This document shows, piece after piece, positions 3,622 through 41,254 of a stretch of DNA of 64,000 nt. Numbering within the stretch: position 1 is the first letter of the stretch; each line of letters begins with the position of its first letter. The notes under the pieces are model-generated. The model was not told the origin of the DNA. It saw only the letters and a program-made list of their open reading frames with translations, and ran no database searches. A program made the position numbers and the translations under genes. The DNA comes from an uncultured Desulfobacteraceae bacterium (lineage in GTDB: Bacteria; Desulfobacterota; Desulfobacteria; Desulfobacterales; UBA11574), in contig CAZQAF010000003.1 of assembly GCA_964591175.1 (NCBI GenBank), positions 8,514 through 72,513 of the forward strand, read 5' to 3'.

Positions 3622-3632
3622 TTTATAATTGT

Positions 3633-4226: not shown

Positions 4227-4300
4227 CTTGATGAAAATACTCCGCGTTTTATGTTTAAATTTACCATGTTTCTCTCCAAAACATTGATGAAGCGCCTTAT

Positions 4301-7933: not shown

Positions 7934-8134
7934 CTACTTTTTAATCTTTTTGCGCCCTAATCCGGCCAAGCCGACCAAACCAACACCGAGCAAAAAAATG
8001 CTGGCAGGCTCCGGAACGGGGGGTAATTTGGCGATTACAGATTCCGAGTCGGTTCCGGCAAATGCCGAAACAACGATAAACCCCAATATAAAAATGAATG
8101 GGAGTACGGCCACTCCTATATATTTCTTATTCAT
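7934..8134 (-). CDS. Minimal PEP-CTERM sorting-domain protein (66 aa)
   Basis: MNKKYIGVAVLPFIFILGFIVVSAFA is a signal peptide. GTDSESVIAKLPP is a 13-aa spacer. VPEPASIFLLGVGLVGLAGLGRKKIKK carries PEP, a TM helix and a basic tail. A GAGGAG RBS lies 5 nt upstream of the ATG at 8134. Confidence 0.75.
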   Translation of the reverse strand: MNKKYIGVAVLPFIFILGFIVVSAFAGTDSESVIAKLPPVPEPASIFLLGVGLVGLAGLGRKKIKK

Positions 8135-8572
8135 ATCTCTCCTCAGACAACACTGGCGTTCATGGTGCACTCTGCCATGAATACCGGTGCTCATTTAATT
8201 TATTGGAATCGTACGTAACTTTGATGATTCCCTATAGAATCATCATTTTATTGGAAGCCAAATCTGGATCGTCTCCCGAGTTTCCCGGTGACAATTAAAA
8301 AGGAAGTCGCCGAAAATCGATTGCAGAAAAAACATCGAAGTCAGATTTTTCAAATGGCGAAAATATTACTGTGAGAATAATGCAAAAATCATGCAAAATT
8401 AGGCTGATTTTTTGATTCCTTTTATTTCAGATAGTTAGCATAGACAGCGTGAATGCGGAGAATATATTTGGGAAATGAATACCATATTTCCTGTTACATA
8501 CATTACATAGTGAGTAATTTAGGTAACAGGGTGAGAAGGGGTATCTGATTGGAAAAGCCGGCGATCCATAAG

Positions 8573-8971
8573 TTATCTTTCCCACCGACTGCCGCCGACA
8601 TTTTTTAGATCAATATACTGAACCGTTCCTCGTTCATTGATAAATGAAGTCAGAAGCCAACTGACCAAACTGATCAATAGCGATCCAAACACGGCGGACC
8701 AGAATCCGGAAACCTCAAAGCCGGGTATCACGCCGGAAACCATCATCAGCATCAATGCGTTGATCACAAAGGTAAAAAGTCCCAAACTCAGTATATTGAC
8801 CGGGAGGGTCAATATGAACAAGATCGGCCGAAAAAAAGCATTCAGTATTCCCAAAATTGCAGCGGCAAAAAATGCGGATACAAAGCCGCTGACCTGAATC
8901 CCGTCAATCAAATATGATGTCGCGATGATTGAAAATGTCAGGATCAACCATCTCAGAAAAATTCCTTTCAT
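8573..8971 (-). CDS. DUF360 / phage-holin-4-like small membrane protein
   Basis: MKGIFLRWLILTFSIIATSYLIDGIQVSGF plus three further TM segments, the pattern of the YvlD/DUF360 family. Confidence 0.6.
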   Translation of the reverse strand: MKGIFLRWLILTFSIIATSYLIDGIQVSGFVSAFFAAAILGILNAFFRPILFILTLPVNILSLGLFTFVINALMLMMVSGVIPGFEVSGFWSAVFGSLLISLVSWLLTSFINERGTVQYIDLKNVGGSRWER

Positions 8972-9057
8972 TGTATTTTCCCCAAAAAATATATTTCCGA
9001 CCGCTGTCATCAGGGATGTCTGGCAAATATTCGCTCGCGAAACACGAGTTTAATGTT

Positions 9058-9540
9058 TTAATCGCCCAGTTTCTTTGCCAGTTCCGCCACTCTCCGGCCC
9101 AGTTTGATACCATTTTCAAGAATGCCACTGTCCGGCGCGCCGACACAGGCTGTTCCGAAATGTCCGGTGGCGGACATGGGATCCCCCACAATCACCATTC
9201 CGTAGATCAACATCACCTGGATGATGGACATCATGGTGGTTTCCTTTCCGCCCGAAGGATCCGCGGATGTTGCAAAAGCAGCGCCGATCTTACCCTCCAT
9301 CTTTTTCCGGATGCCCACAAATTCGTCGAAAATCTTCTTGAGCTGGGCCGCCATGATCCCGAAATAGACCGGAGAACCGGCAATAATTCCGCCTGATGAT
9401 ACAAAATCCTCTTTGGTGACGTCATTGGTATGTTTCAATACGCCATGAACACCTTCGACACTTTCAACCCCTTTGAGGATCGCTTCAGCCAGTTTTTTAG
9501 TGTTGCCGCCCTTAGAAAAATAAAGAACCAAAATTTGCAT
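9058..9540 (-). CDS. Flavodoxin-fold FMN protein (WrbA / NAD(P)H-dependent FMN reductase-like)
   Basis: MQILVLYFSKGGNTKKLAEAI and GSPVYFG are flavodoxin-like signatures. Confidence 0.7.
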   Translation of the reverse strand: MQILVLYFSKGGNTKKLAEAILKGVESVEGVHGVLKHTNDVTKEDFVSSGGIIAGSPVYFGIMAAQLKKIFDEFVGIRKKMEGKIGAAFATSADPSGGKETTMMSIIQVMLIYGMVIVGDPMSATGHFGTACVGAPDSGILENGIKLGRRVAELAKKLGD

Positions 9541-9634
9541 TTAAAGCCTCCTTGACACATTGTATGAAACCGGCACAAACATTTTCGCCGCCAGCCGATG
9601 CCATTGACGATAACACCTTTAAATAGAGGACGGT

Positions 9635-10102
9635 TCAATCATCATAAATTTTCCAATAAGGTTTTTCGCTTTCCCATTTTTCGAGTATTTCCCGGGGTGG
9701 ACGAACGACGACGGCCTTGCATTCGGCCGTGAGGGTTCCGTCGGAAAGACGGATCTCTGAAGCAACCTGAGCCCGGCTGGCGGTCTGTTTGATCACCCAA
9801 CCGATAACCGTCAGCGGGGTATTGGTCGGGGTCGGACGGCGAAAGGTCACTTCGAGTTTCAACGCTACCATTAACGCATCCTCGCCGTTTTTCAACATAA
9901 CGGCGCGTCCGGATGTTTCATCCAGTATTGCCGAAACAATACCCCCGTGAACCACTCCCGGATAGCCGTTGAACTGCTCCGGAACCGTCACCGTCGACCG
10001 CACCTGACGGGCCTGATGATCTTCGTACCATTTCATCTTCAGCGACAATTCATTCTCAAGGCCGCACAGAAAACAACCGCGGGAATTTTTCTGTTTCCGC
10101 AT
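9635..10102 (-). CDS. PaaI/hotdog-fold acyl-CoA thioesterase
   Basis: GVVHGGIVSAILDETSG is the hotdog thioesterase core. The protein is 155 aa. Confidence 0.7.
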   Translation of the reverse strand: MRKQKNSRGCFLCGLENELSLKMKWYEDHQARQVRSTVTVPEQFNGYPGVVHGGIVSAILDETSGRAVMLKNGEDALMVALKLEVTFRRPTPTNTPLTVIGWVIKQTASRAQVASEIRLSDGTLTAECKAVVVRPPREILEKWESEKPYWKIYDD

Positions 10103-10376
10103 TTTTCCTCCTTAGACGTTAATGCGCCACTATAATATTCACATGTTTGTTAAAGGTCAAGCCCGGACGGCTCGTCTTGAGGTCTGGTATCGAAAAATAT
10201 CTTTTGGCAACAAGTCAGGCTCTTGTTTCTATCGGAGCGTTCTTAAAGTAGAAAAATCGATATAGCGGGGAAGCGCTCCTTTACATAAAAATCAAAAACG
10301 TGCAGATATAATTGTGCATCGTGCCTTAAAATTTGCCATCATTTTATCTTTATGATAGTTGTTTTTTATAAAACCT

Positions 10377-12128
10377 ATGAGAGAACAGCCCACATATAAC
10401 CAAATTTTTAATGCGACATCAAACGGCATCATTGCAACGGATGTATTGGGAACGATTGTTTACATCAATCAACAGGCTGAAGAAATACTGGGTTGCAGCG
10501 CCAAAAAGCACAGCGGCGTTTTTATTTCCGAGCTTCTCCCCGTCACGGGGCCCCAAGTCCTGGAATGCCTTAAAACCGGCAGGTCCAATTGGGGCCACCA
10601 TGTTATCGGAGAAAAGCTCGATATGGCGCTCAATATTACCTTGATTCGCAGGGGGAAAAAGCTATTGGGGGCCGTTTGCAATTTCCATGACATGAAGCAA
10701 TTTAAAATTTCGCCGGACGAACTGGCGTCGAGCAGTTATCTGAATCAGCAACTGAAAACCATTTTTAAAGCGTCTCACGATGGCATCTGGGTCTGCGACG
10801 GACAAGGCAAAGTGATTGACGTCAATGAAGCCTCTGAAAAACTCAATGGAATTCATGCATCGGATATCATCGGCAAAAATGTGGTCGATCTCGTAAAAGG
10901 CGGTCTGTTCGATCGCTCGGTAACCCTGGAAGTACTTGAAACCAAACGTCAGGTCAGCGTCATCCAAAAAATAAAACGGACGGAGAAACTTTTGCTGGCC
11001 ACCGGCACACCGGCCTTTGACGATAATGGCCGCATCTTTCTTGTGGTGGTCAATGAGCGGGATATGACCCAATTGAACGCCATCCAAAAACAGCTTGAGC
11101 AGTCCCGTATGGTCACGGAAAAATATAAGGACAAACTGGCTGAACTCAGCCTTATGGAATTAAAAGATCAGGAGATTGTGGCTGAAGATCAAAAGATGCG
11201 CCAAGTTCTGCACCTTGCTTTAAAACTGGCCCATCTTGCGGCATCGGATATATTGATCCTGGGAGAGTCCGGAACCGGCAAAGGGCTTCTGGCCAAGTTT
11301 ATTCATAAAAACAGCAATCGAATCAAGAAACCTTTCATCCAGATCAACTGTGCCACTTTGCCCGAAAACTTGTTAGAGGCTGAACTATTCGGCTATGAAA
11401 AAGGAGCGTTTACCGGTGCACGGCAAGAAGGAAAAGCCGGCCTATTTGAACTGGCCCACGAAGGGACTCTTTTCCTCGACGAAATCGGGGATTTGCCGCA
11501 TTCTCTCCAGGCAAAATTATTGAAATATCTGGATGATCACGAGGTGATGCGTTTGGGGGGGCTTAAATCCAAGAAAATTGACTGCACGATTATTGCCGCT
11601 ACGAATCGAGACATCGAGCGTCTGGTTCAAGAAAAACGGTTTCGAAGGGATCTTTTTTTCCGGCTTAACACATTTACCATAAGAATTCCGCCGCTTCGGG
11701 AAAGAATCGAGGATATTTTTGAACTGGTGAGCTTTTATATGAAAAAATATGGCCAAACATACGGCTTAAACCGGCGGATCTCTCCGGATGCCCTAAAATT
11801 ATTGCAGGACTATCCGTTTCCGGGAAACGTTCGGGAATTGAAAAATGTTATTAAAAAGGCTGTTTTGATGAGTGAAACCCATTTTGTCGATGATGTTATC
11901 TACCAGAGTCTGCCATCAGGTATGTGCACCGTTATGACTTCAGCGGATGATTCGTCTCAGGAAAAAGGACTGGCTGGCCAGATGCTGAACCTGGAAAGGG
12001 AAATTTTACAGCATGCCATGAGATGCTGCGGGACCACCCGCGAAATGGCGCGGTTTTTGAAAATCAGCCAACCCACCATCGTCCGCAAACTCAAAAAACA
12101 TCGTCTATACCGAGAGACGATCCAATAA
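10377..12128 (+). CDS. Sigma-54-dependent transcriptional activator with N-terminal PAS domains
   Basis: Two PAS-like regions are present (SNGIIATDVLGTIVYINQQAEEILG and SHDGIWVCDGQGKVIDVNEASEKLNG). AAA+ motifs are GESGTGKGLLAKFIH, GAFTGA and LFLDEIGDL. There is a C-terminal HTH. The first ATG of the ORF is at 10377. Confidence 0.9.
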   Translation: MREQPTYNQIFNATSNGIIATDVLGTIVYINQQAEEILGCSAKKHSGVFISELLPVTGPQVLECLKTGRSNWGHHVIGEKLDMALNITLIRRGKKLLGAVCNFHDMKQFKISPDELASSSYLNQQLKTIFKASHDGIWVCDGQGKVIDVNEASEKLNGIHASDIIGKNVVDLVKGGLFDRSVTLEVLETKRQVSVIQKIKRTEKLLLATGTPAFDDNGRIFLVVVNERDMTQLNAIQKQLEQSRMVTEKYKDKLAELSLMELKDQEIVAEDQKMRQVLHLALKLAHLAASDILILGESGTGKGLLAKFIHKNSNRIKKPFIQINCATLPENLLEAELFGYEKGAFTGARQEGKAGLFELAHEGTLFLDEIGDLPHSLQAKLLKYLDDHEVMRLGGLKSKKIDCTIIAATNRDIERLVQEKRFRRDLFFRLNTFTIRIPPLRERIEDIFELVSFYMKKYGQTYGLNRRISPDALKLLQDYPFPGNVRELKNVIKKAVLMSETHFVDDVIYQSLPSGMCTVMTSADDSSQEKGLAGQMLNLEREILQHAMRCCGTTREMARFLKISQPTIVRKLKKHRLYRETIQ

Positions 12129-24475: not shown

Positions 24476-25870
24476 ATGAAATCGATACTTTTTTTCACCT
24501 CAAATCAAGATCAACATAAAGCCATTCGGAAAATTCTGAACTCCGGGTACAAAATAGATCACGCACAAGGCTTGGAACAAGCACTGGGTCTGTTTGGTGA
24601 AAAGCGATACGATATTGTTTTAGTCGCCATAGAAGCATTGCGCTCCGAAACCACCAATGGTTACACGGATACACTTCATCGTTTCTGGGATATTTATCCA
24701 TCCGTTGAAGTCATTGTTGTCTCCGCCCAGGACACCATACGAGATGCCGTCATCGCCGTAAAGGCGGGCGCCAGCGACTACCTGACCTTTCCCTTTAATC
24801 CCGAAGAGGTCAAGCATACCATTGAAAATTTACATGAATTCCTTATCGTTCAGTCGGAGCTGGATTATCTCAGGGATAAATTCTGGAAATCCGACACATT
24901 AGAACTTGTTCAAACCAGAAGTCCTCAAATGAAGCTGGTTTTTGACAAGGTACGTTCCGTCGCTCCCACCAGAAGCACGGTCTTGATTATCGGAGAAACC
25001 GGGACAGGAAAAGGGGTATTGGCGAAACTGATTCACAGACACAGCCATCGAATGAATGAAAAGTTTATCAGCTTACACTGCGGTGCAATCCCGGACAACC
25101 TTATTGAAAGCGAGCTATTCGGGCATGAAAAAGGGGCGTTTACCGGTGCAATAAGACGCAAACTCGGCAAATTTGAAATTGCTAAAGGGGGGACCATATT
25201 TCTCGATGAAATCGGAACGATTTCTCCGGCATCACAAATAAAAATCTTACAGGTACTTCAAGACGGTATCTTCGAACGCGTGGGAGGGGAAGAAATTATC
25301 CGGTCGAATGTGAGAATAATTGCTGCTACCAACATGAATCTTAAAGCAATGTGTGAGCAAGGAACGTTCAGAAAGGATCTTTATTACAGGCTGAATGTTT
25401 TTCCCATCGAAATTCCGACGCTTACGGAAAGGAGGGAGGACATCCCTTATCTCGCGGAAATATTTTTAAAAAAAATGAACAAATTTCATCAAAAAAATAT
25501 TCACGGCATACATCCACGGATAATAGAGGCGTTTAATAAATACACCTGGCCGGGCAACATCAGAGAACTGGAAAATCTCGTGGAACGCGCCTATATATTG
25601 GAAACGACGCATATGCTTACCCCGGAAAGCTTTCCCGGCGAATTGTTTGATGCCGATGAAGCGTCAACCCATTTAAAAGTCAGCACTTCTTTTACTCTGG
25701 AAGAGGTAAGGCGAAAGGCAATCGAAAATGTCGAAAGGCTGTATCTTAAGGAAATCCTCACTCAAAAAAACGGAAAAATAAAAGATACCGCAGAAATCGC
25801 CGGCATAAGCCCTCGCCAATTAAACAAGCTGATGAAAAAACACAGGCTTCGAAAAGAAGCGTTTAAATAA
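24476..25870 (+). CDS. Sigma-54-dependent activator (NtrC family) with a degenerate, pseudo-receiver N-terminal domain
   Basis: AAA+ motifs are GETGTGKGVLAKLIH, GAFTGA and IFLDEIG. A C-terminal Fis-type HTH is present (AEIAGISPRQLNKLMKKH). The N-terminal REC-like fold lacks the acidic pair, the phospho-acceptor Asp (DIVLVAIEAL) and the conserved Lys (DYLTFPF). Confidence 0.85.
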   Translation: MKSILFFTSNQDQHKAIRKILNSGYKIDHAQGLEQALGLFGEKRYDIVLVAIEALRSETTNGYTDTLHRFWDIYPSVEVIVVSAQDTIRDAVIAVKAGASDYLTFPFNPEEVKHTIENLHEFLIVQSELDYLRDKFWKSDTLELVQTRSPQMKLVFDKVRSVAPTRSTVLIIGETGTGKGVLAKLIHRHSHRMNEKFISLHCGAIPDNLIESELFGHEKGAFTGAIRRKLGKFEIAKGGTIFLDEIGTISPASQIKILQVLQDGIFERVGGEEIIRSNVRIIAATNMNLKAMCEQGTFRKDLYYRLNVFPIEIPTLTERREDIPYLAEIFLKKMNKFHQKNIHGIHPRIIEAFNKYTWPGNIRELENLVERAYILETTHMLTPESFPGELFDADEASTHLKVSTSFTLEEVRRKAIENVERLYLKEILTQKNGKIKDTAEIAGISPRQLNKLMKKHRLRKEAFK

Positions 25871-31326: not shown

Positions 31327-31651
31327 GGCAAAGCCTTAAAAAATTAGGGTTATTTATACTTTTTTGCTCAAATTAAAAACCTGTAGCATAATTTTTCGGC
31401 AATTGAAAGAACCGGTTTCACAAAAAAGAAAAATGACAGCAAAAAACGAAATATGAATCAGAACCTTCGATCATATACCTTCAGCAATCAGCCTATTATG
31501 CGAAACCAGATGCTTCCGCGCATATCACATTGTCTTACCTATAGAATTTTATTGACAAATTTTAGTATTCCTTATAGGTAAGAAATTTGTTTTTTTCAAT
31601 CCCAAGAAAATGAATTTCCTCAACACTGCTCTTTTTAAGGAGGATCGAACG

Positions 31652-32034
31652 ATGGCCAATGATGTAATCGGATCGGTTCTGGTTTTAGGAGGTGGAATTG
31701 CAGGAATGCAATCCGCTCTGGATCTCGCCAATGCAGGATATTACGTTTATCTCGTAGAAAAATCTCCGTCCATCGGCGGCGTTATGTCCCAACTGGACAA
31801 AACCTTCCCCACCAATGATTGCGCCATGTGAATTATCTCACCGAAACTGGTCGAGGTCGGCCGGCATCTGAACATTGAAATTATCACATATGCGGATCTG
31901 GAATCTGTTGAAGGATCCGTCGGGAACTTCAAAGTGAAGGTTAGAAAACGTGCCCGTAGTATCAATATGGATCTTTGCACGGGATGCGGCAACTGCGTTG
32001 AAAACTGCCCTGTTATGTATCAGGCGATCAGCTA
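31652..32034 (+). CDS. hdrA: HdrA N-terminal fragment (127 aa) with an in-frame UGA (Sec) at 31829-31831; truncated relative to full-length HdrA (split gene or pseudogene)
   Basis: [80 protein letters not shown]...[19 protein letters not shown]. It has the FAD Rossmann GxGxxG, the TNDC(S/A)M(C/U)ILxPK motif and the first ferredoxin CxxCxxCxxxCP. An AAGGAGG RBS precedes the ATG at 31652. The track shows only 31610-31831. Confidence 0.7.
31837..31855 (+). other. Weak candidate SECIS hairpin after the hdrA-fragment UGA
   Basis: CUCACC-GAAACU-GGU(C)GAG is 6 bp with one bulge and starts 6 nt after the UGA. Confidence 0.2.
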
Positions 32035-32168
32035 ATTTTATCGCCGTTGCTGTCTGTTATAATTGCAGTTTATGCTGAAAACCCGTTTTTTTGTTCAAAT
32101 GAATTGGAACGAAGACAATGGTACCTGACATTTAACCTTTTTACTTCATTGATAAGGGTTGTTCCGTT

Positions 32169-32654
32169 ATGGAAAATAAAATGGATATCAATTGGAAGAA
32201 GATAGATGATATCACCAATGCGTATAATAATGACGGTGAAGCGTTGTTGATGATTATGCAGGATATCGGCGACATTTATAATTATGTCCCCCCGGAGGTG
32301 ATTCCTGTTCTGGTTGAAAAACTTGGCGTAAAACCGAGCCTTGTTTACAGCGTTGCCACCTTTTATAAGACGATTAGCCTTGAACCTCGTGGAAAATACA
32401 TCGTCAGCGTCTGTACCGGCACCGCATGTCATGTGCGAGGTGCTGAAAAAATTATGGAAGCGTTGGAAGATCGTCTCCATGTCAAAAAAAGCGAAACCTC
32501 TGAAGATCGTCTGTTTACCCTGGAGGCTGTTCGATGTGTCGGGTGCTGCGCTTCCGGGCCGGTTATCACCGTCAATCAGAATACCCACGGAGGCTTAAAC
32601 CGTTCCAGTGTAGTAAAAGTCATCGATGAATATGAAAACCAACACGTTTCTTAA
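32169..32654 (+). CDS. NuoE/HoxE/HndA-like [2Fe-2S] thioredoxin-fold subunit
   Basis: VSVCTGTACHVRGAEKIMEAL and CVGCCASGPV provide the four Cys of the NuoE-type cluster. Confidence 0.85.
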   Translation: MENKMDINWKKIDDITNAYNNDGEALLMIMQDIGDIYNYVPPEVIPVLVEKLGVKPSLVYSVATFYKTISLEPRGKYIVSVCTGTACHVRGAEKIMEALEDRLHVKKSETSEDRLFTLEAVRCVGCCASGPVITVNQNTHGGLNRSSVVKVIDEYENQHVS

Positions 32655-32685
32655 GCGGCATGGGTAATGGAGGTTATATAACACC

Positions 32686-34539
32686 ATGGCAAAATTAGAA
32701 AATAGATCGGCACTGGAATCATATCGAAACGCTCTTTTGACCGATCAGGAAAACCGGAAAAAGAAATTAATTTCTCTTTGTGCGGGTTCGGGATGCGGTG
32801 CCTATGGAACTGCAAAAGTGTATGACGCGTTAGTTCAGGAGTTGGCCAAGCAGGGATTGCAAAAGGACGTGGAGGTTAAGCTTTCGGGTTGTCACGGTTT
32901 TTGTGAGAAAGGACCGATTCTGGTGATTCATCCCGAAGGCATATTTTACCCCCAGATTAAAGAGGATCATATTCCTGATATTGTTGAAAAAACAATTAAA
33001 AACGGGGAACTGGTTCAATCCCTCGTTTATAAGGATCCTTCCACAAAAGAAAAAATTACACAAGAAAAGGATGTTTCTTTTTATAAACTTCAGCAGAGAG
33101 TTATTTTTGGAAATAACGGCGCCATCGACCCCACCAGCATTGAAGACTATATTGCGGTTGGCGGATATCAAGCGCTTGAAAAAGCACTTTTCGATATGAC
33201 GCCCGAAGAAATTATCGATCAAGTTAAAAAATCGGGCTTGAGGGGTCGCGGAGGCGGTGGATTCCCCACCGGTATCAAGTGGGAAACCTGCCACAGGCAT
33301 AACGGTGACAAATACGTCATCTGCAATGCCGATGAAGGAGATCCCGGCGCCTATATGGATCGAAGCCTTTTGGAAGGCAATCCCCATCTGGTTTTGGAAG
33401 GAATGATTATTGGCGCCGTTGCCATCGGTTCCAATCAAGGCTATGTATATGTACGACACGAATACCCGCTGGCGGTAAAAAACTTGTCCATTGCACTGCG
33501 GCGGGCTGAAGAGCTCGGTTTTCTGGGCAAGAATATCTTGGGTTCCGGACTCGATTTAAACATTCGTATCAGTCGCGGCGGGGGGGCCTTTGTGTGTGGT
33601 GAATCCACCGCCTTAATGGCATCTCTGGAGGGGATGCCCGGACGGCCCCGGGCCAAATATATCCATACCGTAGAAAAAGGATTCCGCAACAACCCGTCGA
33701 ATCTGAACAACGTGGAAACATGGGCCAATGTACCGGTAATCATCGATAAGGGAGCGGATTGGTATGCTGCCATCGGCACCGAGAGAAGCAAGGGCACCAA
33801 AATTTTTTCACTGGTCGGCAAAGTGACGAATACGGGGCTGGTGGAAGTGCCCATGGGGACAACGCTGCGCACCATTATTTACGATATCGGCGGCGGTATT
33901 CCAAATAAAAAGAAATTCAAAGCGGTTCAAACCGGGGGACCGTCAGGAGGATGCATTCCGGAGCAATTTTTAAATTTGGGGGTTGATTTTGATGAGCTGA
34001 CGAAGGTCGGTTCCATCATGGGCTCCGGCGGCATGATCGTGATGGATCAGGACACTTGTATGGTGGACGTGGCTCGATATTTTCTTGATTTCCTAAAAGA
34101 GGAATCTTGCGGTCAATGCAATCCCTGCCGTGAGGGAATAACGGCGATGCTGGATATTCTGACCGATATATGTCAAGGCAACGGCAAAGAAGGCGACATC
34201 GAGCTTTTGGAAGATCTGGGAATGATGATTCAAAAGTTTTCCCTTTGCGGATTGGGAACTTCGGCACCCAATCCCGTGCTGACGACGATACTCTATTTCC
34301 GGGATGAATATGAAGCCCACATAAAGGACAAAAAATGTCCGTCGGGTGTTTGCAAACCTTTATTTCACTATGAGATTGATGAAGACGCCTGCACCGGCTG
34401 CACCCTTTGTGCCAAACGATGTCCCGAGGAAGCCATTACCGGTGAAAAGAAAAAACCGCATCATTTAGATATGGGAAAATGCATAAAGTGCGGCATCTGT
34501 TATGATGCCTGTAAGTTCGATGCCGTACTCATCCAATAA
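32686..34539 (+). CDS. NuoF/HndC/HydB-like NAD(H)-binding FMN flavoprotein with an N-terminal [2Fe-2S] domain and C-terminal 2x[4Fe-4S]
   Basis: GLRGRGGGGFPTGIKW is the FMN/NADH site. ESCGQCNPCREG is the N3 cluster. CTGCTLCAKRCP and CIKCGICYDACK are ferredoxin motifs. The N-terminus has LCAGSGCGAYG...SGCHGFCEKGP. Confidence 0.9.
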   Translation: MAKLENRSALESYRNALLTDQENRKKKLISLCAGSGCGAYGTAKVYDALVQELAKQGLQKDVEVKLSGCHGFCEKGPILVIHPEGIFYPQIKEDHIPDIVEKTIKNGELVQSLVYKDPSTKEKITQEKDVSFYKLQQRVIFGNNGAIDPTSIEDYIAVGGYQALEKALFDMTPEEIIDQVKKSGLRGRGGGGFPTGIKWETCHRHNGDKYVICNADEGDPGAYMDRSLLEGNPHLVLEGMIIGAVAIGSNQGYVYVRHEYPLAVKNLSIALRRAEELGFLGKNILGSGLDLNIRISRGGGAFVCGESTALMASLEGMPGRPRAKYIHTVEKGFRNNPSNLNNVETWANVPVIIDKGADWYAAIGTERSKGTKIFSLVGKVTNTGLVEVPMGTTLRTIIYDIGGGIPNKKKFKAVQTGGPSGGCIPEQFLNLGVDFDELTKVGSIMGSGGMIVMDQDTCMVDVARYFLDFLKEESCGQCNPCREGITAMLDILTDICQGNGKEGDIELLEDLGMMIQKFSLCGLGTSAPNPVLTTILYFRDEYEAHIKDKKCPSGVCKPLFHYEIDEDACTGCTLCAKRCPEEAITGEKKKPHHLDMGKCIKCGICYDACKFDAVLIQ

Positions 34540-34566: not shown

Positions 34567-37500
34567 ATGATAACGTTTAAACTAAACGGGAAAAAAGTTC
34601 AGGGAGAAGAAGGGCAGTATATCCTTCAAGTTGCTGAAAAATACGGGGTTGAAATTCCGACGCTGTGTCATCATAAAGGACTCGAACCCGCCGGAATGTG
34701 CCGTCTATGCACTGTGGAGCTTTTTGACGGTCGCCGAACTCGCTTTGTAACCGCCTGCAACTATCCCATTTGGGAAGGCATGGCAGTCAAAACCGACACC
34801 GAAACGGTACACGAAGGTCGAAAGCTGAATGTTGAACTGTTGATGGCCCGCTGCCCGGATATTCCTGTCATAAAGACGCTTGCGGCTCAATACGGTATTG
34901 AAGAACCGCGTTTTAAGATTAAAGATGACACTTGCATCCTTTGCGGCCTTTGCACTCGAATCTGTCAAAGAATGGGCAACAGCGCCATCAGCCTCACCGG
35001 CCGAGGGGTGGAGATGAAGGTGGATACCCCGTTTCACATCCAGACGGAGGTCTGTATGGCTTGCGGCGCCTGCGCTTTTGTCTGTCCCACGGGGCACATT
35101 ACCCTTGATAAAATCAAAGAACATATTTCCACACAAACGGTTATAAAGATTCCCTCGGAATACGATGCCGGTCTCAAAGGCCGGAAACCGATCTATGTGC
35201 CGTATGCCCAGGCCGTTCCCAATACACCCGCCATCGACCGGACGAAATGCGTCCATTTCAAGACGGATGGATGCAAGATATGCGCTGATTTTTGTCCGGT
35301 CGGCGCCATTGATCATTCACAGCAAGATGAATTTGTCGAGTTTGACGTGGGATCCATTGTTCTGGCCCCCGGATTTGACACCTTTGATCCCAGCCGGTTT
35401 GACACCTATGCCTATGCCCAGTTGCCCAATGTGGTCACCTCGTTGGAATTTGAGCGGATTCTTTCCGCCACCGGTCCCTTTTCAGGTCACCTGATCAGAC
35501 CGTCCGACCACAAGGAACCCAAAAAAATCGGCTGGCTGCAATGTGTCGGTTCCAGGGACCTCAACCGTTGCGATAATGCCTACTGCTCATCGGTGTGCTG
35601 CATGTATGCCATTAAACAGACCGTCATCGCAACGGAACACAGCAAGGATCCCCTTGACTGTGCGGTTTTTTACATGGATATGCGCACCCACGGCAAAGAC
35701 TTTGATAAATATTATGATAATGCCGAAAAACAAGGGGTCAGATTCGTCCGGTCCCGAATTCACACCATTGACCCGGTTCCGGGAACAGATGATGTGTCGG
35801 TCCGGTATATCGAGGAAGACGGAACCGTCAAAGAGGAAATCTTCGATATGTTTGTTTTGTCCGTTGGCCTTGAAATTAATCAGGATATTGCGGACCTTTC
35901 CAAACGCATCGGCATCGATCTCGATGAATATCGCTTTACGAAAACCGACAGTTTTCATCCCGTAGGCACCTCTGTGGAAGGCATCTATGCCTGCGGTGTG
36001 TTCACCGGTCCAAAGGATATTCCCCAATCGGTGATGGAAGCCAGCGCTTCGGCTTGTGCGGCAACAGAACACTTGGCATCGGCGCGCAATACCCGTACCA
36101 AGATCCTCGAACTCCCCCCTGAAAGAGATGTCAGCGGCGAACCCCCTAAAATCGGCGTATTTGTATGCAATTGCGGGATTAACATCGGCGGCGTGGTAAA
36201 AGTGCCGGAGGTGGTTAAGTACGCCAAAACGTTGCCCAATGTGGTGTATGTCGAAGAAAATCTCTTTAGCTGCAGCCAGGATACCCAGGATAAAATGTCC
36301 GACATCATCAATCAACAGGGGCTCAACCGCGTGGTTGTGGCCGCCTGCACCCCTAAAACCCATGAACCGCTGTTCCAGGAGACCCTGATTAACGCGGGGC
36401 TCAACAAGTATCTTTTTGAAATGGCCAATATCCGAAATCATGACTCCTGGGTCCATGCCAATGATCCGGATGCTGCCACCGAAAAAGCCAAGGATCTCAT
36501 TCGAATGGCGGTTGCGAAAACCAATCTTTTAGCCCCTTTGAAACAGACCGATCTCCCGGTATCCCATTCGGCCCTGGTGATCGGCGGGGGAATTGCCGGA
36601 ATGACGGCCGCGGTTTCGTTGGCTCATCAAGGGTATCCGGTAGACCTTGTTGAAAAATCCGGCGCTTTGGGCGGAAATGCTTTAATGTTGAGAAAAACGT
36701 CCCAAAACGAAGATGTCGGGGCTTTTGTTGAAGAACTTATCCAAGCCGTTAAATCCGAAGACCGAATTACCCTCCACACCGGAACCACCATCGGCAACGT
36801 GGATGGCTTTGTCGGCAATTTCAAAACAGAGCTTCGCAACCAAGGGGCAACACAAATCATCGAACACGGCGTGACGGTGATCGCCACCGGCGCCAAAGAA
36901 TACAAACCCGTCGAATACCTTTATGGAAAACATGATGCCGTGATGACCCATCTGGAACTCGACGAACTTTTCAAAAAAAACGATCCCAGACTTGACCAAA
37001 CCGAAAATGTAGTGTTTATTCAGTGCGTGGGATCCAGAGACAAAGAGCGACCTTACTGTTCGAAAGTATGCTGTACACATAGCGTCAAAAGTGCTATTGA
37101 CTTTAAGAAAAAAAATCCGAATGTGAATGTTGCGATTCTTTACAGGGATATTCGGACGTATGGCAAAAAAGAAGATCTATATCGCGAGGCAAGAGAGGCC
37201 GGGGTGCTCTTTTTTTCGTATTCCGTCGATCAAAAACCTGAGGTGACGTCCGATGGCGATCAGGTTGTGGTTGAATTTACGGATCGGATCCTCAATCGAA
37301 AATTGGCCGTGAAGGCCGATATTCTTTGTTTGGCTTCAGCCATTGAATCCCATTGGGATCACTCGCTGGCTCAGCTTTTTAAGGTACCGCTGGACTCGGA
37401 TGGATGGCTTTTGGAAGCCCATCAGAAATTGCGGCCGGTGGATTTTGCCAATGACGGTATCTTTCTGTGCGGCATGGCGCATTACCCGAAGCCCATCGAA

Positions 37501-37809
37501 GAAAGTATCGCACAGGCCCAGGCAGCGGCGGCAAGAGCGACCACCGTTCTGGCGCTGGAGAACATTAAGGTGGGCGGTATTGTCACGGATATTCGGGCCG
37601 AGTTGTGTTCGGGCTGCCTGGGATGCATCAATGTCTGCCCCTATGGCGCCATCACCTTCAATAGTCAAAAATTTGTGGCCGAAGTTAATGCGGCCCTGTG
37701 TAAAGGGTGCGGTGCCTGTGCGGCGGTATGCCCGTCGGAGGCACCCGCACTCATGGGCTTTAACAACTATCAACTGTACGCCCAGATCAAGAGCGCATTG
37801 AGCGCTTGA
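34567..37809 (+). CDS. 1080-aa fusion of a NuoG-N-like [2Fe-2S]/[4Fe-4S] module, an N-terminally truncated HdrA unit, and a second complete HdrA-like FAD unit with a C-terminal ferredoxin
   Basis: The N-terminus has CHHKGLEPAGMCRLCTV (2Fe-2S), CILCGLCTRICQ and CMACGACAFVCPTG. The HdrA collinear block is PSEYDAGLKGRKPIYVPYAQAVP...CKICADFCPVGAI...VGSIVLAPGFD...GWLQCVGSRD...CSSVCCMYAIKQ...IGVFVCNCGINIGG. A second unit has ALVIGGGIAGMTAAVSLA...FIQCVGSRD...CSKVCCTHS...CSGCLGCINVCP...CKGCGACAAVCP. No GxGxxG occurs before about residue 645. Confidence 0.85.
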   Translation: MITFKLNGKKVQGEEGQYILQVAEKYGVEIPTLCHHKGLEPAGMCRLCTVELFDGRRTRFVTACNYPIWEGMAVKTDTETVHEGRKLNVELLMARCPDIPVIKTLAAQYGIEEPRFKIKDDTCILCGLCTRICQRMGNSAISLTGRGVEMKVDTPFHIQTEVCMACGACAFVCPTGHITLDKIKEHISTQTVIKIPSEYDAGLKGRKPIYVPYAQAVPNTPAIDRTKCVHFKTDGCKICADFCPVGAIDHSQQDEFVEFDVGSIVLAPGFDTFDPSRFDTYAYAQLPNVVTSLEFERILSATGPFSGHLIRPSDHKEPKKIGWLQCVGSRDLNRCDNAYCSSVCCMYAIKQTVIATEHSKDPLDCAVFYMDMRTHGKDFDKYYDNAEKQGVRFVRSRIHTIDPVPGTDDVSVRYIEEDGTVKEEIFDMFVLSVGLEINQDIADLSKRIGIDLDEYRFTKTDSFHPVGTSVEGIYACGVFTGPKDIPQSVMEASASACAATEHLASARNTRTKILELPPERDVSGEPPKIGVFVCNCGINIGGVVKVPEVVKYAKTLPNVVYVEENLFSCSQDTQDKMSDIINQQGLNRVVVAACTPKTHEPLFQETLINAGLNKYLFEMANIRNHDSWVHANDPDAATEKAKDLIRMAVAKTNLLAPLKQTDLPVSHSALVIGGGIAGMTAAVSLAHQGYPVDLVEKSGALGGNALMLRKTSQNEDVGAFVEELIQAVKSEDRITLHTGTTIGNVDGFVGNFKTELRNQGATQIIEHGVTVIATGAKEYKPVEYLYGKHDAVMTHLELDELFKKNDPRLDQTENVVFIQCVGSRDKERPYCSKVCCTHSVKSAIDFKKKNPNVNVAILYRDIRTYGKKEDLYREAREAGVLFFSYSVDQKPEVTSDGDQVVVEFTDRILNRKLAVKADILCLASAIESHWDHSLAQLFKVPLDSDGWLLEAHQKLRPVDFANDGIFLCGMAHYPKPIEESIAQAQAAAARATTVLALENIKVGGIVTDIRAELCSGCLGCINVCPYGAITFNSQKFVAEVNAALCKGCGACAAVCPSEAPALMGFNNYQLYAQIKSALSA

Positions 37810-37830
37810 TCCATTGAAAAGGAGAAAAAT

Positions 37831-38322
37831 GTGAACGAGGAGAGATTTGAGCCTAAAATCATCGCTTTTATGTGTAACTGGTGTGCATACGGGGCGGCCG
37901 ATCTGGCGGGTGTCAGTAGACTGGCATACCCCCCCAATATTCGTCCCATCCGGGTCATGTGCTCCGCCACGGTGTCGCCGCATCACATTCTAAGAGCGTT
38001 TCAAAGCGGCGCCGATGGCGTCCTCGTGGGCGGCTGACACGTCGGAGACTGCCATTACCTGTATGGTAATTATATGACGATCAAACGGATGACATTTCTG
38101 CAGGAACTTTTGTCCTTTATGGGACTGGAAGGACGGTTGCATTTGGACTGGATATCTTCGGCGGAAGCCCAAAAATTTGTGCAAGTCGTCACCAATTTTA
38201 CAAATAAAATAAAATCATTGGGCCCCAGCCCTCTGTCCGGCGACTTTGACATGTCCGCCGTTATGAATGCGTGCGGAGCATGCGAAGCGGTGCAGGATAC
38301 TGCGAGCGTGGAGGAAGGATGA
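37831..38322 (+). CDS. mvhD: MvhD (methyl-viologen-reducing hydrogenase delta subunit-like [2Fe-2S] protein) with Sec at 38035-38037
   Basis: [22 protein letters not shown]...[22 protein letters not shown]...[12 protein letters not shown]. It is collinear with methanogen MvhD, where GGCHxGDCHY has Cys at the UGA position. Track ORFs 37831-38037 and 38074-38322 are in the same frame. GTG start with a GGAG RBS. Confidence 0.85.
38054..38070 (+). other. Candidate SECIS hairpin after the mvhD UGA
   Basis: AUUACC-UGUAU-GGUAAU has a 6-bp stem, and the loop lies about 23 nt after the UGA. Confidence 0.3.
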
Positions 38323-38323
38323 T

Positions 38324-39121
38324 ATGCAGGAACAAATCAAACAGTGGCTTGAACAAGGTAACATCGATATTTTTTTAGGGTATAAGATGATTCAGGGTCA
38401 CCCGCTGCCCTATTGCTTCACCAAGGATAACCCGGATGATCTCAAGGATCTGATTGTCGGAAATGCCAGATATTCCCTTGAAAAAATGGCCACAAAAATC
38501 GCTGCTGAACATAAGGATCTGAAAATAGGACTTCTAACCCGGGATTGCAATCAACGGGCCTTGAATGTGCTTTATATCTGGAACCAGTTGAATCCGGAAA
38601 ACATTAAAACCATAGGGGTCAATTGCTGCCCGTCCAATCTCAAGGAACACGGCGATTGTTCCTATTTGGAACCGGAACTTATCCCGCCAATCAAGAAAAT
38701 GATCGGCATCGACAACAACATGCAAGTTAAAGCAGCCGAAGAATTCAACCAGGATGAAAGATTCAACCGGTGGATGTATGAATTTCAGAAATGCATCAAA
38801 TGTTACGGCTGTCGAGATATTTGTCCGGTTTGCTTTTGCAAGGAATGCAGTCTTGAACACACCGACCTGATCGCCACCGGCAGTATCCCGCCGGAGATTC
38901 CGATTTTTCATCTGGTTCGGGCAGTTCATATGGCGGGCCGGTGTATTGACTGCGGTCTGTGCGAGGATGCCTGCCCGGTTGATATTCCGTTACGGTTGCT
39001 CTATCGAAAGGTCAATGAAATCGTGACCGACATATTCGATTACACCACCGGAACCCGTGCGGACCAATCACCGTTTAATATGCTGGGAGAAGAGGTAACA
39101 CTGAAACCCAAGCCTATTTAA
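38324..39121 (+). CDS. Iron-sulfur electron-transfer protein with two CxxCxxCxxxCP clusters (HdrC/FrhB-like accessory subunit)
   Basis: CIKCYGCRDICPVCFC and CIDCGLCEDACPVDIP are present. The ATG at 38324 lies 1 nt after the mvhD stop. The track ORF start (38267) overlaps mvhD. Confidence 0.65.
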   Translation: MQEQIKQWLEQGNIDIFLGYKMIQGHPLPYCFTKDNPDDLKDLIVGNARYSLEKMATKIAAEHKDLKIGLLTRDCNQRALNVLYIWNQLNPENIKTIGVNCCPSNLKEHGDCSYLEPELIPPIKKMIGIDNNMQVKAAEEFNQDERFNRWMYEFQKCIKCYGCRDICPVCFCKECSLEHTDLIATGSIPPEIPIFHLVRAVHMAGRCIDCGLCEDACPVDIPLRLLYRKVNEIVTDIFDYTTGTRADQSPFNMLGEEVTLKPKPI

Positions 39122-39217
39122 TTACAAACGATGGAAGATGTGATGCCTTTGCTACCCTAACTGCGGGAAAGCATTAATATTCAAGGAAAATATTCCATAC
39201 AATAAGGAGCGATACGA

Positions 39218-41254
39218 ATGGATTTTAAGATCATTCCTTCAACATGTTCATATTGCGGCACGGGCTGCGGTGTCCTTTTTCAGGTGATGGACGGCCGTCT
39301 TGTCGATACCCTGCCGATGAAAACCCATCCGGTGAACCAGGGAAGACTTTGTATTAAGGGATGGAATCTCCACGAACATGTTATCAGCGACAAGCGTCTC
39401 AAATCGCCTTTGATCAAAAAGGACGGCGAATTGCAGGAAACCACATGGGACGAGGCCATAAAAACGACGGCCGACAGGCTCAAAGCCGTTATTAAAGATC
39501 ATGGGCCGGACAGCGTCGCCGTGCTGGCCTCTGCAAAAATTACCAACGAGGAGAATTATCTGGTCCAAAAATTTGCAAGGGCGGTGGTGGGAACCAATAA
39601 TGTGGATCACTGCGCCCGGCTCTGACATTCCTCTACCGTGGCAGGTCTTGCCGCAGCATTCGGAAGTGGGGCCATGACCAATTCCATCGCTGAAATTGAA
39701 GATTCGGCGAGTATTTTCATCATCGGTTCGAATACGTCCGCGTGTCATCCGCTCATTGCCCGGCGTGTCTTCAGGGCCAAGGAAAAAGGGGCCAAACTCA
39801 TCGTGGCCGACCCCAGAAATATTCAATTGGCTCGTTTCGCGGACGTTGCCGTCCAACAGAGGCTCGGCAGCGATGTGGCGTTATTAAACGGCATGATGCA
39901 TATTATATTAAAAAACGGCTGGCACGATAAAACCTACATCGAAAACAGAACCGAAGGGTTTGAGGATTTCAAGTCGGTGGTCGAGTTATATACACCGGAT
40001 AAGGTTGAAACCATCACAGGTGTGGCCCAAAGCGATCTTGAAAAAATGGCTGAACTTTACGCCGTCAACTCACCGGCGGCACTCCTCTATGCCATGGGGA
40101 TTACACAGCATACCACCGGCGTGGACAACGTCAAGTCATGCTGCAATCTGGCCATGCTCTGCGGCAATGTGGGCGTAAGAAGCGGCGGTGTGAACCCCTT
40201 GAGAGGCCAGAACAATGTTCAGGGCGCCTGCGACATGGGCGGCTTGCCCAATGTGTTTCCGGCTTATCAGCCGGTAACGGTCGAAGCCAACAATGAAAAA
40301 TTTTCCAAAGCATGGGGAAAACCGCTTCCTGCCGAAATCGGCTATACCATTACCGATATGATCCAGGCCATGAACGACGGGAAATTAAAGGCCCTCTATA
40401 TCGTCGGAGAGAATCCCAAACTGAGCGACCCCAACCAGAACCACCTGGAGGATGCCCTGGAAAAACTCGATCTTTTGATTTGCCAGGATATCTTTCTGTC
40501 TGAAACCGCCCAAAAAGCCGACGTGGTTCTTGCGGCGGTTTCTGTGGCGGAAAAGGAGGGGACCTTTACCAATACCGAGCGGCGCTGTATGAAAGTGAAC
40601 AAGGCCATCGATCCTTTGGGAAACACGCTCAACGACTGGGATATCATTTCAAGATTATCCACGGCCATGGGCTACGAGATGCACTATGGGAATCCCGAAG
40701 AGATTTTCAACGAAATGACCGCTCTGACACCGAGTTACGGCGGCATGACCTATGAAAGGCTCGGCCTTGACGGGCTTCAATGGCCCTGCCCCAACGCCGA
40801 GCACCCCGGAACGCCGTTTTTGCACAAAGATCAGTTTACCCGGGGAAAAGGTCTTTTCCATGCCATCGAATATCTCGACCCCGCGGAGATGCCGGATGAC
40901 GAATACCCCTATTGGCTCACTACCGGCAGGATGTTCGCGCATTACCATACCGGTACCATGACGCGCGTATCAAGACATTTGGATACCGAGCAAAAAACCG
41001 GATATGTGGAAATCAACCCCAAAGACGCCAAGGTGCTGGGGGTTAATGACGGCGATATCGTGCACCTTGCCACTCGCAGGGGCGAAACCAAAGTGCCGGC
41101 CAGGGTCAGCAAAGTGGTCGAACCCGGCGTGCTCTTCGTGCCGTTTCATTTTGCTGAAAGCCCGGCCAATATACTTACCAATTCTGCCTGTGATCCCATC
41201 GCCAAAATTCCGGAGTATAAGGTTTGTGCGGTAAAAATCGAGAAAGCCGCATAG
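39218..41254 (+). CDS. fdhA: Formate dehydrogenase catalytic subunit (Mo/W-bisPGD), cytoplasmic, selenocysteine at 39623-39625
   Basis: The N-terminal 4Fe-4S motif is CSYCGTGCG, with no twin-arginine signal. [28 protein letters not shown] is the classic FDH Sec site. Track ORFs 39218-39625 and 39638-41254 are in the same frame. Confidence 0.9.
39638..39654 (+). other. Candidate SECIS hairpin for the fdhA UGA
   Basis: GUGGCA-GGUCU-UGCCGC has a 6-bp stem including one G-U pair. The GGUCU apical loop resembles the E. coli fdhF SECIS loop and lies about 19-23 nt after the UGA. Confidence 0.55.

Follow-up and report, generated by a model that had tools for sequence, protein, structure and literature searches.

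The window analysed here, a stretch of 64,000 nucleotides from an uncultured Desulfobacteraceae bacterium (contig CAZQAF010000003.1), holds a short gene at 31652-32037 whose product corresponds to the beginning of the flavoprotein HdrA, and, further downstream, a gene for a 1080-aa fusion protein that carries HdrA sequence from the point at which the short product ends. The closest architecture is that of tandem HdrA proteins such as BamE of the class II benzoyl-CoA reductase (BCRII) of Geobacter metallireducens, a fused HdrA dimer with a cryo-electron microscopy structure (bioRxiv 10.64898/2026.04.10.717634). We use TrxR1 for the first thioredoxin-reductase-like unit of a tandem HdrA, and fragment for the short product. 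The fragment gene has the following features, including a codon for selenocysteine (Sec) and a hairpin resembling a selenocysteine insertion sequence (SECIS).

31637-31643, forward strand: Shine-Dalgarno sequence AAGGAGG of the fragment gene, as read from the sequence; the ATG at 31652 begins 8 nt later.
31652-32037, forward strand: fragment gene, predicted to encode a selenoprotein of 127 aa that corresponds to the N-terminal piece of TrxR1 in a flavoprotein of the tandem HdrA/BamE type.
31688-31705, forward strand: GGGIAG (residues 13-18), dinucleotide-binding motif of the Rossmann βαβ for flavin adenine dinucleotide (FAD).
31820-31831, forward strand: Cys57-Ala-Met-Sec60 in FPTNDC57-A-M-U60, with the UGA Sec codon at 31829-31831.
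31847-31864, forward strand: SECIS-like hairpin CUGGUCG-AGGU-CGGCCGG with a 7-bp stem and a GGU-containing loop, beginning 16 nt past the UGA.
31976-32011, forward strand: first cluster motif of the inserted 2x[4Fe-4S] ferredoxin domain, C109-x2-C112-x2-C115-x3-C119-P.

The open reading frame (ORF) runs from the ATG at 31652 through 127 sense codons to a TAA stop at 32035-32037, with a single in-frame TGA (31829-31831) at codon 60. A preliminary description of this DNA had read the ORF as the first part of HdrA, with a Rossmann motif, a UGA at a Cys/Sec position, the first ferredoxin motif and an AAGGAGG ribosome-binding site ahead of it, and matches to PDB chains bear this out: residues 8-121 of the fragment correspond to residues 145-258 of HdrA (PDB identifier 5ODC, E = 4e-44), and the same residues match PDB identifier 8RVU with E = 2.5e-48. 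Sec60 is therefore aligned with Cys197 of methanogen HdrA. The cluster motif ends at V121 and, as had also been described, six further residues (MYQAIS) close the ORF before the TAA. Relatives of the fragment share its start position, beginning with MANDVIG or MxKDVIG. A promoter search revealed no convincing sigma-70 promoter 5' of the fragment gene, and a terminator search between this gene and nuoE found no terminator-like site.

The genes that separate the two HdrA pieces, and the three parts of the fusion protein, are as follows; Pfam and PDB matches agree with the earlier reading that nuoE-like, nuoF-like and NuoG-N-like modules lie between the pieces.

32169-32654, forward strand: NuoE/HydC/BfuC-like [2Fe-2S] subunit (Pfam PF01257, E = 1e-45; NCBIfam matches).
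32686-34539, forward strand: NuoF/HydB/BfuB-like flavoprotein with N-terminal [2Fe-2S] and C-terminal 2x[4Fe-4S] domains (Pfam).
34567-35106, forward strand: NuoG-N/HydA-N/BfuA-like iron-sulfur (FeS) module, fusion residues 1-180, which includes CILCGLCTRIC and CMACGACAFVCP.
35143-36111, forward strand: remainder of TrxR1, fusion residues 193-515, equivalent to HdrA 257-~570.
36124-37809, forward strand: second HdrA unit, fusion residues 520-1080, with a cluster domain at its N-terminus, a GGGIAG of its own and a 2x[4Fe-4S] domain at its C-terminus.

The NuoF-like protein gives full-length matches to HydB, to subunit B of NiFe-Bfu and to NfnB (E 1e-194 to 1e-236), and it is accompanied by NuoE-like and NuoG-N-like partners, as is characteristic of bifurcating NADH modules of the Bfu/HydABC type. 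On account of its extra domains and these full-length matches, we assign the cassette to the electron-bifurcating HydABC/Bfu type; an origin as respiratory complex I was considered and is rejected by the same domain architecture and matches.

The fusion protein (1080 aa, 34567-37809) is a composite of NuoG-N, the rest of TrxR1 and a second HdrA unit. Its NuoG-N module matches HydA1 and a NuoG-like chain (PDB identifiers 9MQX_A and 8A6T_A) through residue 179, and the CMACGACAFVCP motif, being paired with CILCGLCTRIC in a 2x[4Fe-4S] domain of the NuoG/HydA type, is not free to serve the HdrA ferredoxin domain. Fusion residues 155-452 match HdrA 246-517, and the first HdrA block opens with IKIPSEYDAGLKGRKPIYVPYAQAVP immediately after the cluster motif CMACGACAFVCPTG, just as the preliminary description had it. 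This block contains the second ferredoxin motif (C228-x7-C236-x2-C239-x3-C243-P, all four Cys invariant), the C-x12-C-x3-CC cluster/Lys motif (CVGSRD...YCSSVCCMYAIK350), the Lys of which contacts flavin N5, and a GPKDIP-type FAD motif, GVFTGPKDIPQS, at residues 477-488; C326, C340, C344, C345 and K350 are invariant in the alignment of fusion relatives. The TrxR1 part of the fusion lacks the dinucleotide-binding βαβ, the CxxC/U and the first ferredoxin motif, and alignment to HdrA confirms that the fusion does not keep an FAD-binding N-terminus of its own for TrxR1. The sole GxGxxG of the 1080-aa protein is at residue 673, in the second unit; the earlier observation that no such motif precedes about residue 645 is thus right in that the first unit has none, but the position given for the second unit's motif needs correction. 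The second unit aligns with HdrA over both ends (fusion 519-757 with HdrA 4-243; fusion 934-1079 with HdrA 511-654), lacks the CxxC/U and the inserted ferredoxin domain, and reads KTSQNEDVGAF at the position of FPTNDCxxC. The defining elements of the HdrA-type fold are thus all present: the cluster/Lys motif lies in the fusion, and the pair of FAD motifs and the two motifs of the inserted ferredoxin domain are distributed across two polypeptides.

A protein search with the fragment returned 3703 matches at E ≤ 1e-10, and the best 120 of these, which were inspected, show 70-96% identity and are nearly all 120-154 aa long, with two longer ones (166 and 205 aa). Locus counts given here come from a genome scan with an alignment of the fusion, using one genome per species, which gave 574 confirmed relatives, the best 80 of which were kept. 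Among the loci whose fusion begins with NuoG-N (class A), the order fragment-nuoE-nuoF-fusion is intact in 45 of the 47 species-level genomes with enough upstream DNA (L001 and L003 show this order), with a fragment ORF of 126-134 codons 2.4-2.8 kb upstream of the fusion, and every class A fragment stops 5-13 residues past the CP(V) motif. Two further class A loci have a partial fragment at the contig edge and nine are cut off by a contig end; in L053, an exception, the sequence immediately 5' of nuoE is a run of N, and the fragment is present in the sister genome L054. G13, G15, G18, C57 and the four ferredoxin Cys (C109, C112, C115 and C119) are invariant in the 45 fragment sequences. The ratio of nonsynonymous to synonymous substitution (dN/dS) of the fragment, from pairwise comparison of the window with eight to ten relatives, is 0.04-0.10 over the whole gene, 0.012-0.06 before the UGA and 0.02-0.07 after it. 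In two divergent genomes, L063 and L064 (5153-6079 in both), a Cys-type fragment is fused in frame to NuoE in a protein of 309 aa, which ties the fragment physically to the complex of its own operon. The label 'orphan', given to the fragment in the preliminary description, does not survive the comparison, as the fragment belongs to a large family; it is conserved, intact, under purifying selection and, save for one locus discussed below (L077), not lost where the fusion is kept. This distribution indicates that the split is old and widespread, rather than a local accident of the window's genome.

Unsplit homologues (class B) start like the fragment and run through both HdrA units, without NuoG-N and without a nearby nuoE or nuoF. 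There are about twenty such loci, each with a single ORF of ~1003-1020 codons, and a UGA occupies the fragment-equivalent codon in 20 of the 21 class B loci examined. Class B proteins are colinear with, and 57-67% identical to, fragment residues 1-121 followed by fusion residues 193-515; around the break the alignment has a single indel, a gap of one column right at the junction, and nothing is lost or duplicated, which agrees with the claim that the two pieces are nearly contiguous in HdrA coordinates. At the junction the joined pieces read ...CVENCPV and then IKIPSEYDAGLKGRKPIYVPYAQAVP, and the unsplit proteins read ...CAEKCP-KKIxDxYNxGLxKRKAIYVxYxQAVP. In an AlphaFold model of a Cys-type unsplit homologue, with a mean predicted local distance difference test score (pLDDT) of 82, helix 118-121, which binds a cluster, and strand 126-128 are connected by a coil, and the break falls in this coil. 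NuoG-N and HdrA both have a CxxCxxCxxxCP motif, and recombination between these homologous motifs was weighed as the origin of the split but rejected: CPTG and IPSEYD stand ~20 residues of linker apart, and the junction therefore does not run from motif to motif. Differences specific to the two classes peak on either side of the break, over residues 76-175 of the concatenated protein, where the window has 63-86% mean identity to class A as against 37-51% to those class B proteins that accompany formate dehydrogenase (Fdh).

Codon 60 is TGA in 42 of the 45 class A genes and TGC or TGT in three (L001, L003 and L052). None of the six third-codon positions within the hairpin varies in the 42 distinct UGA-bearing class A sequences, whereas third positions of the codons flanking it are variable in 6-28 of these 42. 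The constraint is relaxed in the three Cys-codon genes, which have synonymous changes in the hairpin; unsplit Sec-type genes retain the same hairpin, and in L084 and L087 its closing pair is changed from C-G to U-A in a compensatory manner. The fragment also shows the features by which bacterial selenoproteins are recognized, a UGA aligned with Cys in homologues and a 3' hairpin with G/U in the apical loop. Conservation of this kind is the signature of a working bacterial SECIS, so ribosomes are predicted to read to the end of the ORF, and the hairpin at 31847-31864 behaves as expected of a bacterial SECIS element. A scan of the whole window at Rfam gathering thresholds matched zero families, and the 64-kb window has no tRNA (tRNA-Sec included) and no genes for Sec machinery. 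In a metagenome-assembled genome (MAG) of the same species, NCBI annotation calls the fragment as a 127-aa product. Other public calls in the fragment family often have W at the Sec position, the UGA having been translated with the wrong genetic code, or are split at the UGA into 54-68-aa pieces labelled 'hypothetical' or '4Fe-4S binding protein, partial'. In public calls the products of unsplit Sec-type genes are listed at ~900 aa, and we take these calls to start at an internal Met after the UGA. As annotation pipelines mostly cut the fragment gene at its UGA or read the UGA as Trp, a probably required subunit of a widespread Desulfobacterales enzyme is usually missed.

Based on these observations, we propose, with a probability of roughly 0.8, that the fragment gene is a real, translated selenoprotein gene whose product provides the first 121 residues of TrxR1 in a BamE-type fused HdrA dimer, and that the enzyme is a naturally split flavoprotein, most likely one whose two polypeptides are made separately and then assembled. 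Many Desulfobacterales and their relatives would descend from an ancestor in which a HydABC/Bfu cassette came to sit inside a bamE-like gene, immediately behind the inserted ferredoxin domain's first CxxCxxCxxxCP motif; the 5' piece would have gained its own stop codon and the 3' piece would have become fused in frame behind NuoG-N. The earlier suggestion of an ancestral Sec-hdrA split by an NADH-dehydrogenase cassette is upheld inasmuch as the cassette lies exactly in the break in 45 genomes, but the ancestor was probably a tandem, BamE-like HdrA and not a single canonical one. Likewise, of the two fates that had been offered for the fragment, that of a trans-acting piece is favoured by conservation, selection and colinearity with the unsplit homologues.

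UGA-60 would be read as Sec, aided by the hairpin at 31847-31864, and the resulting 14-kDa product would dock non-covalently on the 1080-aa fusion. The fusion is predicted to need the fragment because its TrxR1 part has no βαβ, CxxC/U or first ferredoxin motif, as judged from homology. Docking would complete the FAD site of TrxR1, to which the fragment would contribute the GxGxxG βαβ, and the fusion the cluster motif, Lys350 and GPKDIP; the fragment should thus carry parts of the expected catalytic flavin site. It would also supply the Cys57/Sec60 pair, in a redox or ligand role, whose partner N-terminal domain is one that only unit 2 has in the fusion, and would complete the two [4Fe-4S] clusters of the inserted ferredoxin domain, with four Cys from each chain. 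In 2x[4Fe-4S] ferredoxin folds, each cluster is bound by three Cys of one motif and one of the other, and from this topology each cluster of the split domain would be ligated in a 3+1 manner across the two chains. HdrA-type flavoproteins are among the few known devices for flavin-based electron bifurcation, and a separate 14-kDa chain that bears the FAD-binding start, the CxxU and half of a low-potential ferredoxin domain would offer a handle for reconstitution, labelling and Sec/Cys swaps. The locus would also be a clean example of a gene interrupted within a domain by a functionally related cassette and then long kept split.

Three further genes follow the fusion, and with them the operon, which spans ~9.6 kb, contains three selenoprotein genes, those of the fragment, of the MvhD/FlpD-like protein and of FdhA.

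37831-38322, forward strand: MvhD/FlpD-like gene with an in-frame UGA at 38035-38037 (VLVGG-U-HVGDCHY).
38324-39121, forward strand: 265-aa FeS protein that resembles the C-terminal ferredoxin part of FdhB of methanogen Fdh-Hdr complexes (here FdhB').
39218-41254, forward strand: molybdopterin subunit of formate-dehydrogenase type (FdhA), its in-frame UGA at 39623-39625.

FlpD appears as two half-ORFs in L005, and FdhA is annotated by NCBI as a 678-aa product in the same-species MAG; the UGA of fdhA likewise has a hairpin with a GGU loop 3' of it. The 265-aa protein matches PDB identifiers 9T1S_M (E = 7e-34), 8RVU_E (5e-29) and 7BKB_E (3e-26). An assignment of the operon to a class II benzoyl-CoA reductase (BamBCDEFGHI) was considered and rejected: it has neither BamB nor BamD, and the downstream genes are mvhD, fdhB' and fdhA.

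In the arrangement that we propose, with lower confidence than the split itself, a soluble complex would wire the Bfu module, which handles NADH and ferredoxin, through the tandem HdrA and the Sec-containing MvhD to the FdhB'/Sec-FdhA formate dehydrogenase. By analogy with BCRII and with the Fdh-MvhD-Hdr complexes of methanogens, and with the same reserve, the flavin of the tandem HdrA and its C-terminal ferredoxin domain may be where FdhA/FdhB' and MvhD connect, and the Bfu module may provide the connection to NAD(H) and ferredoxin; the overall reaction is then likely, again at lower confidence, to be reversible and to couple formate/CO2 with NAD(H) and ferredoxin. We give even odds to a stronger form of the proposal, in which the bifurcating-flavin site is an obligate two-chain one, with two [4Fe-4S] clusters shared between the chains, that was split by insertion of a HydABC/Bfu cassette in a bamE-like gene, and in which the enzyme joins two mechanistically different bifurcation modules, that of Bfu with flavin mononucleotide (FMN) and that of HdrA with FAD, to formate dehydrogenase. 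If this is true, assembly of the flavin site depends on a separately translated Sec subunit, and formation of the complex could be selenium-sensitive.

Several observations weigh against a split flavoprotein of this kind, or against parts of it. The operon encodes no high-potential partner of the HdrBC or BamD type. The folding energy of the hairpin does not differ significantly from that of shuffled sequences (z = -0.3), so the case for the SECIS is a comparative one. An AlphaFold model of the fusion alone (12 sequences; mean pLDDT 58, predicted template modelling score 0.41) is too poor to be informative, with low confidence in TrxR1 and the half ferredoxin domain and in the complete NuoG-N as well. 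L077, a divergent paralogue of 50% identity in a different context, encodes a NuoG-N-HdrA fusion without a neighbouring fragment; either its fragment is supplied from elsewhere or the protein works differently. Lastly, in BCRII the subunit BamI contacts the C-terminal ferredoxin domain of BamE (bioRxiv 10.64898/2026.04.10.717634), and so the covalent attachment of NuoG-N beside the inserted ferredoxin domain need not mark that domain as the point of electron entry.

Other explanations of the fragment have been weighed against the same data. It is highly improbable that the ORF is a decaying remnant, that is, a pseudogene left by a rearrangement next to a fusion that works alone, as the preliminary description had allowed. 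The fragment is indeed smaller than one domain, standard gene callers read its UGA as a stop and public annotation mostly shows pieces of 54-68 aa, but ORFs of 126-134 codons have remained intact at a constant position in 45 genomes, all cofactor-binding residues and the nucleotides of the SECIS hairpin are invariant, dN/dS is low on both sides of the UGA (0.02-0.10), and the fusion has no TrxR1 GxGxxG or first ferredoxin motif of its own with which to work alone. Just as little credit can be given to termination at the UGA, by which only a 59-residue peptide would be made and 67 downstream codons would go untranslated. A UGA is normally a stop, and the window has neither Sec machinery nor tRNA-Sec; yet the codons after the UGA vary almost solely at their third positions (dN/dS 0.02-0.07), the hairpin is invariant in UGA-bearing genes only, relatives have Cys codons at the same position, the MvhD and FdhA genes of this operon likewise need UGA read-through, and NCBI calls the 127-aa product in the same-species MAG.

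An autonomous small protein, acting alone or with another partner in a redox or regulatory role or as a piece for other truncated HdrA paralogues, has somewhat more in its favour and is still unlikely. The fusion homologue of L077 has no adjacent fragment, and these genomes have many HdrA paralogues (PMC2702500). However, a Rossmann βαβ with half a ferredoxin motif is not expected, from HdrA homology, to form a full FAD or cluster site alone; the fragment is in strict synteny with the fusion and aligns colinearly with unsplit proteins, it is fused to NuoE in L063 and L064, and the two sides of the break have been inherited together. An artefact of assembly or annotation that hides a contiguous gene has next to no probability: the window and most of its relatives come from MAGs, but 45 independent assemblies agree, among them L029 and L041, whose contigs measure 0.8-4.2 Mb, and L004-L007, where the same species was sampled several times.

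The proposed split flavoprotein can be compared with several characterized systems, of which BCRII is the nearest. In TrxR1 of BamE the bifurcating FAD lies beside Lys280, and Cys59 and Cys62 make up a pair that in one state is a disulfide (bioRxiv 10.64898/2026.04.10.717634). Mapped by the residue numbers of the preprint, with offsets of +2 before and +1 after the junction, the fragment's C57/U60 is the counterpart of Cys59-Cys62 of BamE, and K350 in the fusion that of Lys280. The two systems share tandem TrxR-like units, the CxxC pair in TrxR1, the cluster motif, the Lys next to flavin N5, an N-terminal domain in one unit only, and an MvhD-like adaptor (BamF) and a HydABC/Bfu-type module (BamGHI) as partners, and the ~1010-aa unsplit class B homologues show the BamE-type architecture in one piece. 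They differ in that BamE is one polypeptide with BamI separate, whereas here the 121-residue start is separate, a BamI-like module is fused ahead of the remainder and bamG/H-like genes lie inside the break; furthermore, the partner here is a formate dehydrogenase, BamD and the BamB/C tungsten module both being absent. The BCRII preprint describes the interplay of CxxC pair, flavin and nearby clusters in HdrA-type bifurcation as unresolved (bioRxiv 10.64898/2026.04.10.717634).

The fragment and the fusion also align residue by residue with methanogen HdrA of the MvhAGD-HdrABC and FdhAB-MvhD-HdrABC complexes (PDB identifiers 5ODC, 7BKB and 8RVU), and MvhD, an FdhB-type connector and a Sec-containing FdhA follow here as in the methanogen Fdh-Hdr complexes. 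Methanogen HdrA, however, is a homodimer of complete 650-aa subunits, whereas the protein here would join two units covalently, as a pseudo-dimer, with domain losses that complement each other and with one of the units split; moreover, the methanogen complexes have HdrBC, and neither hdrB nor hdrC was found in this operon. As the NCBIfam HdrA and HdrA2 scores (166 and 783 bits) also lie far below the curated cut-offs of 1100-1400, the proposed enzyme should not be called a CoB-CoM heterodisulfide reductase. Cys197 of methanogen HdrA ligates the [4Fe-4S] cluster in the N-terminal domain of the partner protomer, and in tandem or fused HdrA of anaerobic methanotrophic (ANME) archaea and Moorella one unit has lost Cys197 and the other the N-terminal domain (Chadwick et al. 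2022, PMC9012536). The same complementarity is mirrored here, where unit 2 has the N-terminal domain without a CxxC and the fragment has Sec60, but the unit with the N-terminal domain comes first in the ANME and Moorella fusions and second here, and none of those fusions is described as interrupted within the ferredoxin domain by other genes (PMC9012536).

Members of the Bfu family likewise have a NuoF-like subunit with extra domains, a NuoE-like subunit and a NuoG-N-like BfuA (Schut et al. 2022, PMC9304861); in the present operon the BfuA-like module differs in being fused to an HdrA-type flavoprotein, and only Bam-Bfu has been described as combining Bfu and HdrA modules, as separate subunits (PMC9304861). 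Among sulfate reducers and their relatives, work on Desulfobacterium autotrophicum HRM2 reports Sec-containing hdrA/mvhD adjoining fdhB/fdhA, and Hdr domains on two or more colocalized genes (PMC2702500), and work on Desulfotignum phosphitoxidans reports nuoEFG-hdrA-mvhD transcription units (PMC4046663); the parts of these two papers that were available make no mention of a 127-aa piece, of a break in the ferredoxin domain or of a cassette in the break. Permuted, fused or tandem HdrA modules, Sec-containing hdrA/mvhD/fdhA clusters and nuoEFG-hdrA-mvhD units are thus already known, and the literature searched contains no description of a 127-aa selenoprotein as a needed piece of TrxR1, of the ferredoxin-domain break or of a Bfu cassette within it.

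Comparison of the window (34567-41254) with L048, L062, L067, L070, L075 and other class A loci revealed that the operons of the window and its close relatives L008, L009, L041 and L068 are mosaic. In the window, class-A-like sequence makes up the fragment, NuoG-N and the second ferredoxin half, and the closest counterparts of the C-terminal part of TrxR1, unit 2, mvhD, fdhB' and fdhA are in class B operons with a formate dehydrogenase, with identities to class B of 81-87% for MvhD and 69-74% for FdhA, and of 61-71% for the TrxR domain of unit 2 as compared with 48-56% to other class A loci. The crossover lies at about fusion residues 270-420, and both sides of the break (the fragment and the second ferredoxin half) are of class A type in the mosaic operon and have been co-inherited. 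A class-A-like operon stands directly upstream of a class B-mvhD-fdhB'-fdhA operon in L075, and the recombinant of the window could have arisen from such an arrangement by unequal crossing-over. The nuoE/nuoF pair (32169-34539) shows a different pattern, as the window has 96% identity to L008/L041 in the fragment and ~90% in the fusion, yet only 49% in NuoE and 67-68% in NuoF, whereas more distant class A loci reach 70-74% in NuoE and ~80% in NuoF. As these identities contradict the relatedness seen in the fragment and fusion, the pair, of which there are two types, seems to have been exchanged between lineages or paralogous operons.

Most class A operons continue after the fusion with MvhD, an FeS protein like the C-terminal part of FdhB, a sulfhydrogenase-beta-like protein (PDB identifier 9NEZ_B, E = 6e-36) and an FAD/NAD(P)-binding gamma-like protein. 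Examples of this sulfhydrogenase-beta-type partner set are found in L003 (15024-18856), where a DsrC gene is adjacent, and in L001 (16139-19453). The same split core thus appears to be plugged into different partner modules across class A operons. In L077, a Syntrophobacterales MAG (3453-6520 and 7968-11273), an FrhB-like protein precedes the NuoG-N-HdrA-HdrA fusion, and a further NuoG-N/HdrA-like pair and an unsplit tandem HdrA lie close by. In the window, 24476-25870 encodes a sigma-54-dependent response regulator, a few kb 5' of the fragment gene, and L003 (3050-5894) has such a regulator too, there accompanied by a PAS/HisKA sensor kinase; such a regulator, present in the window's species and in one different species, might regulate the operon.

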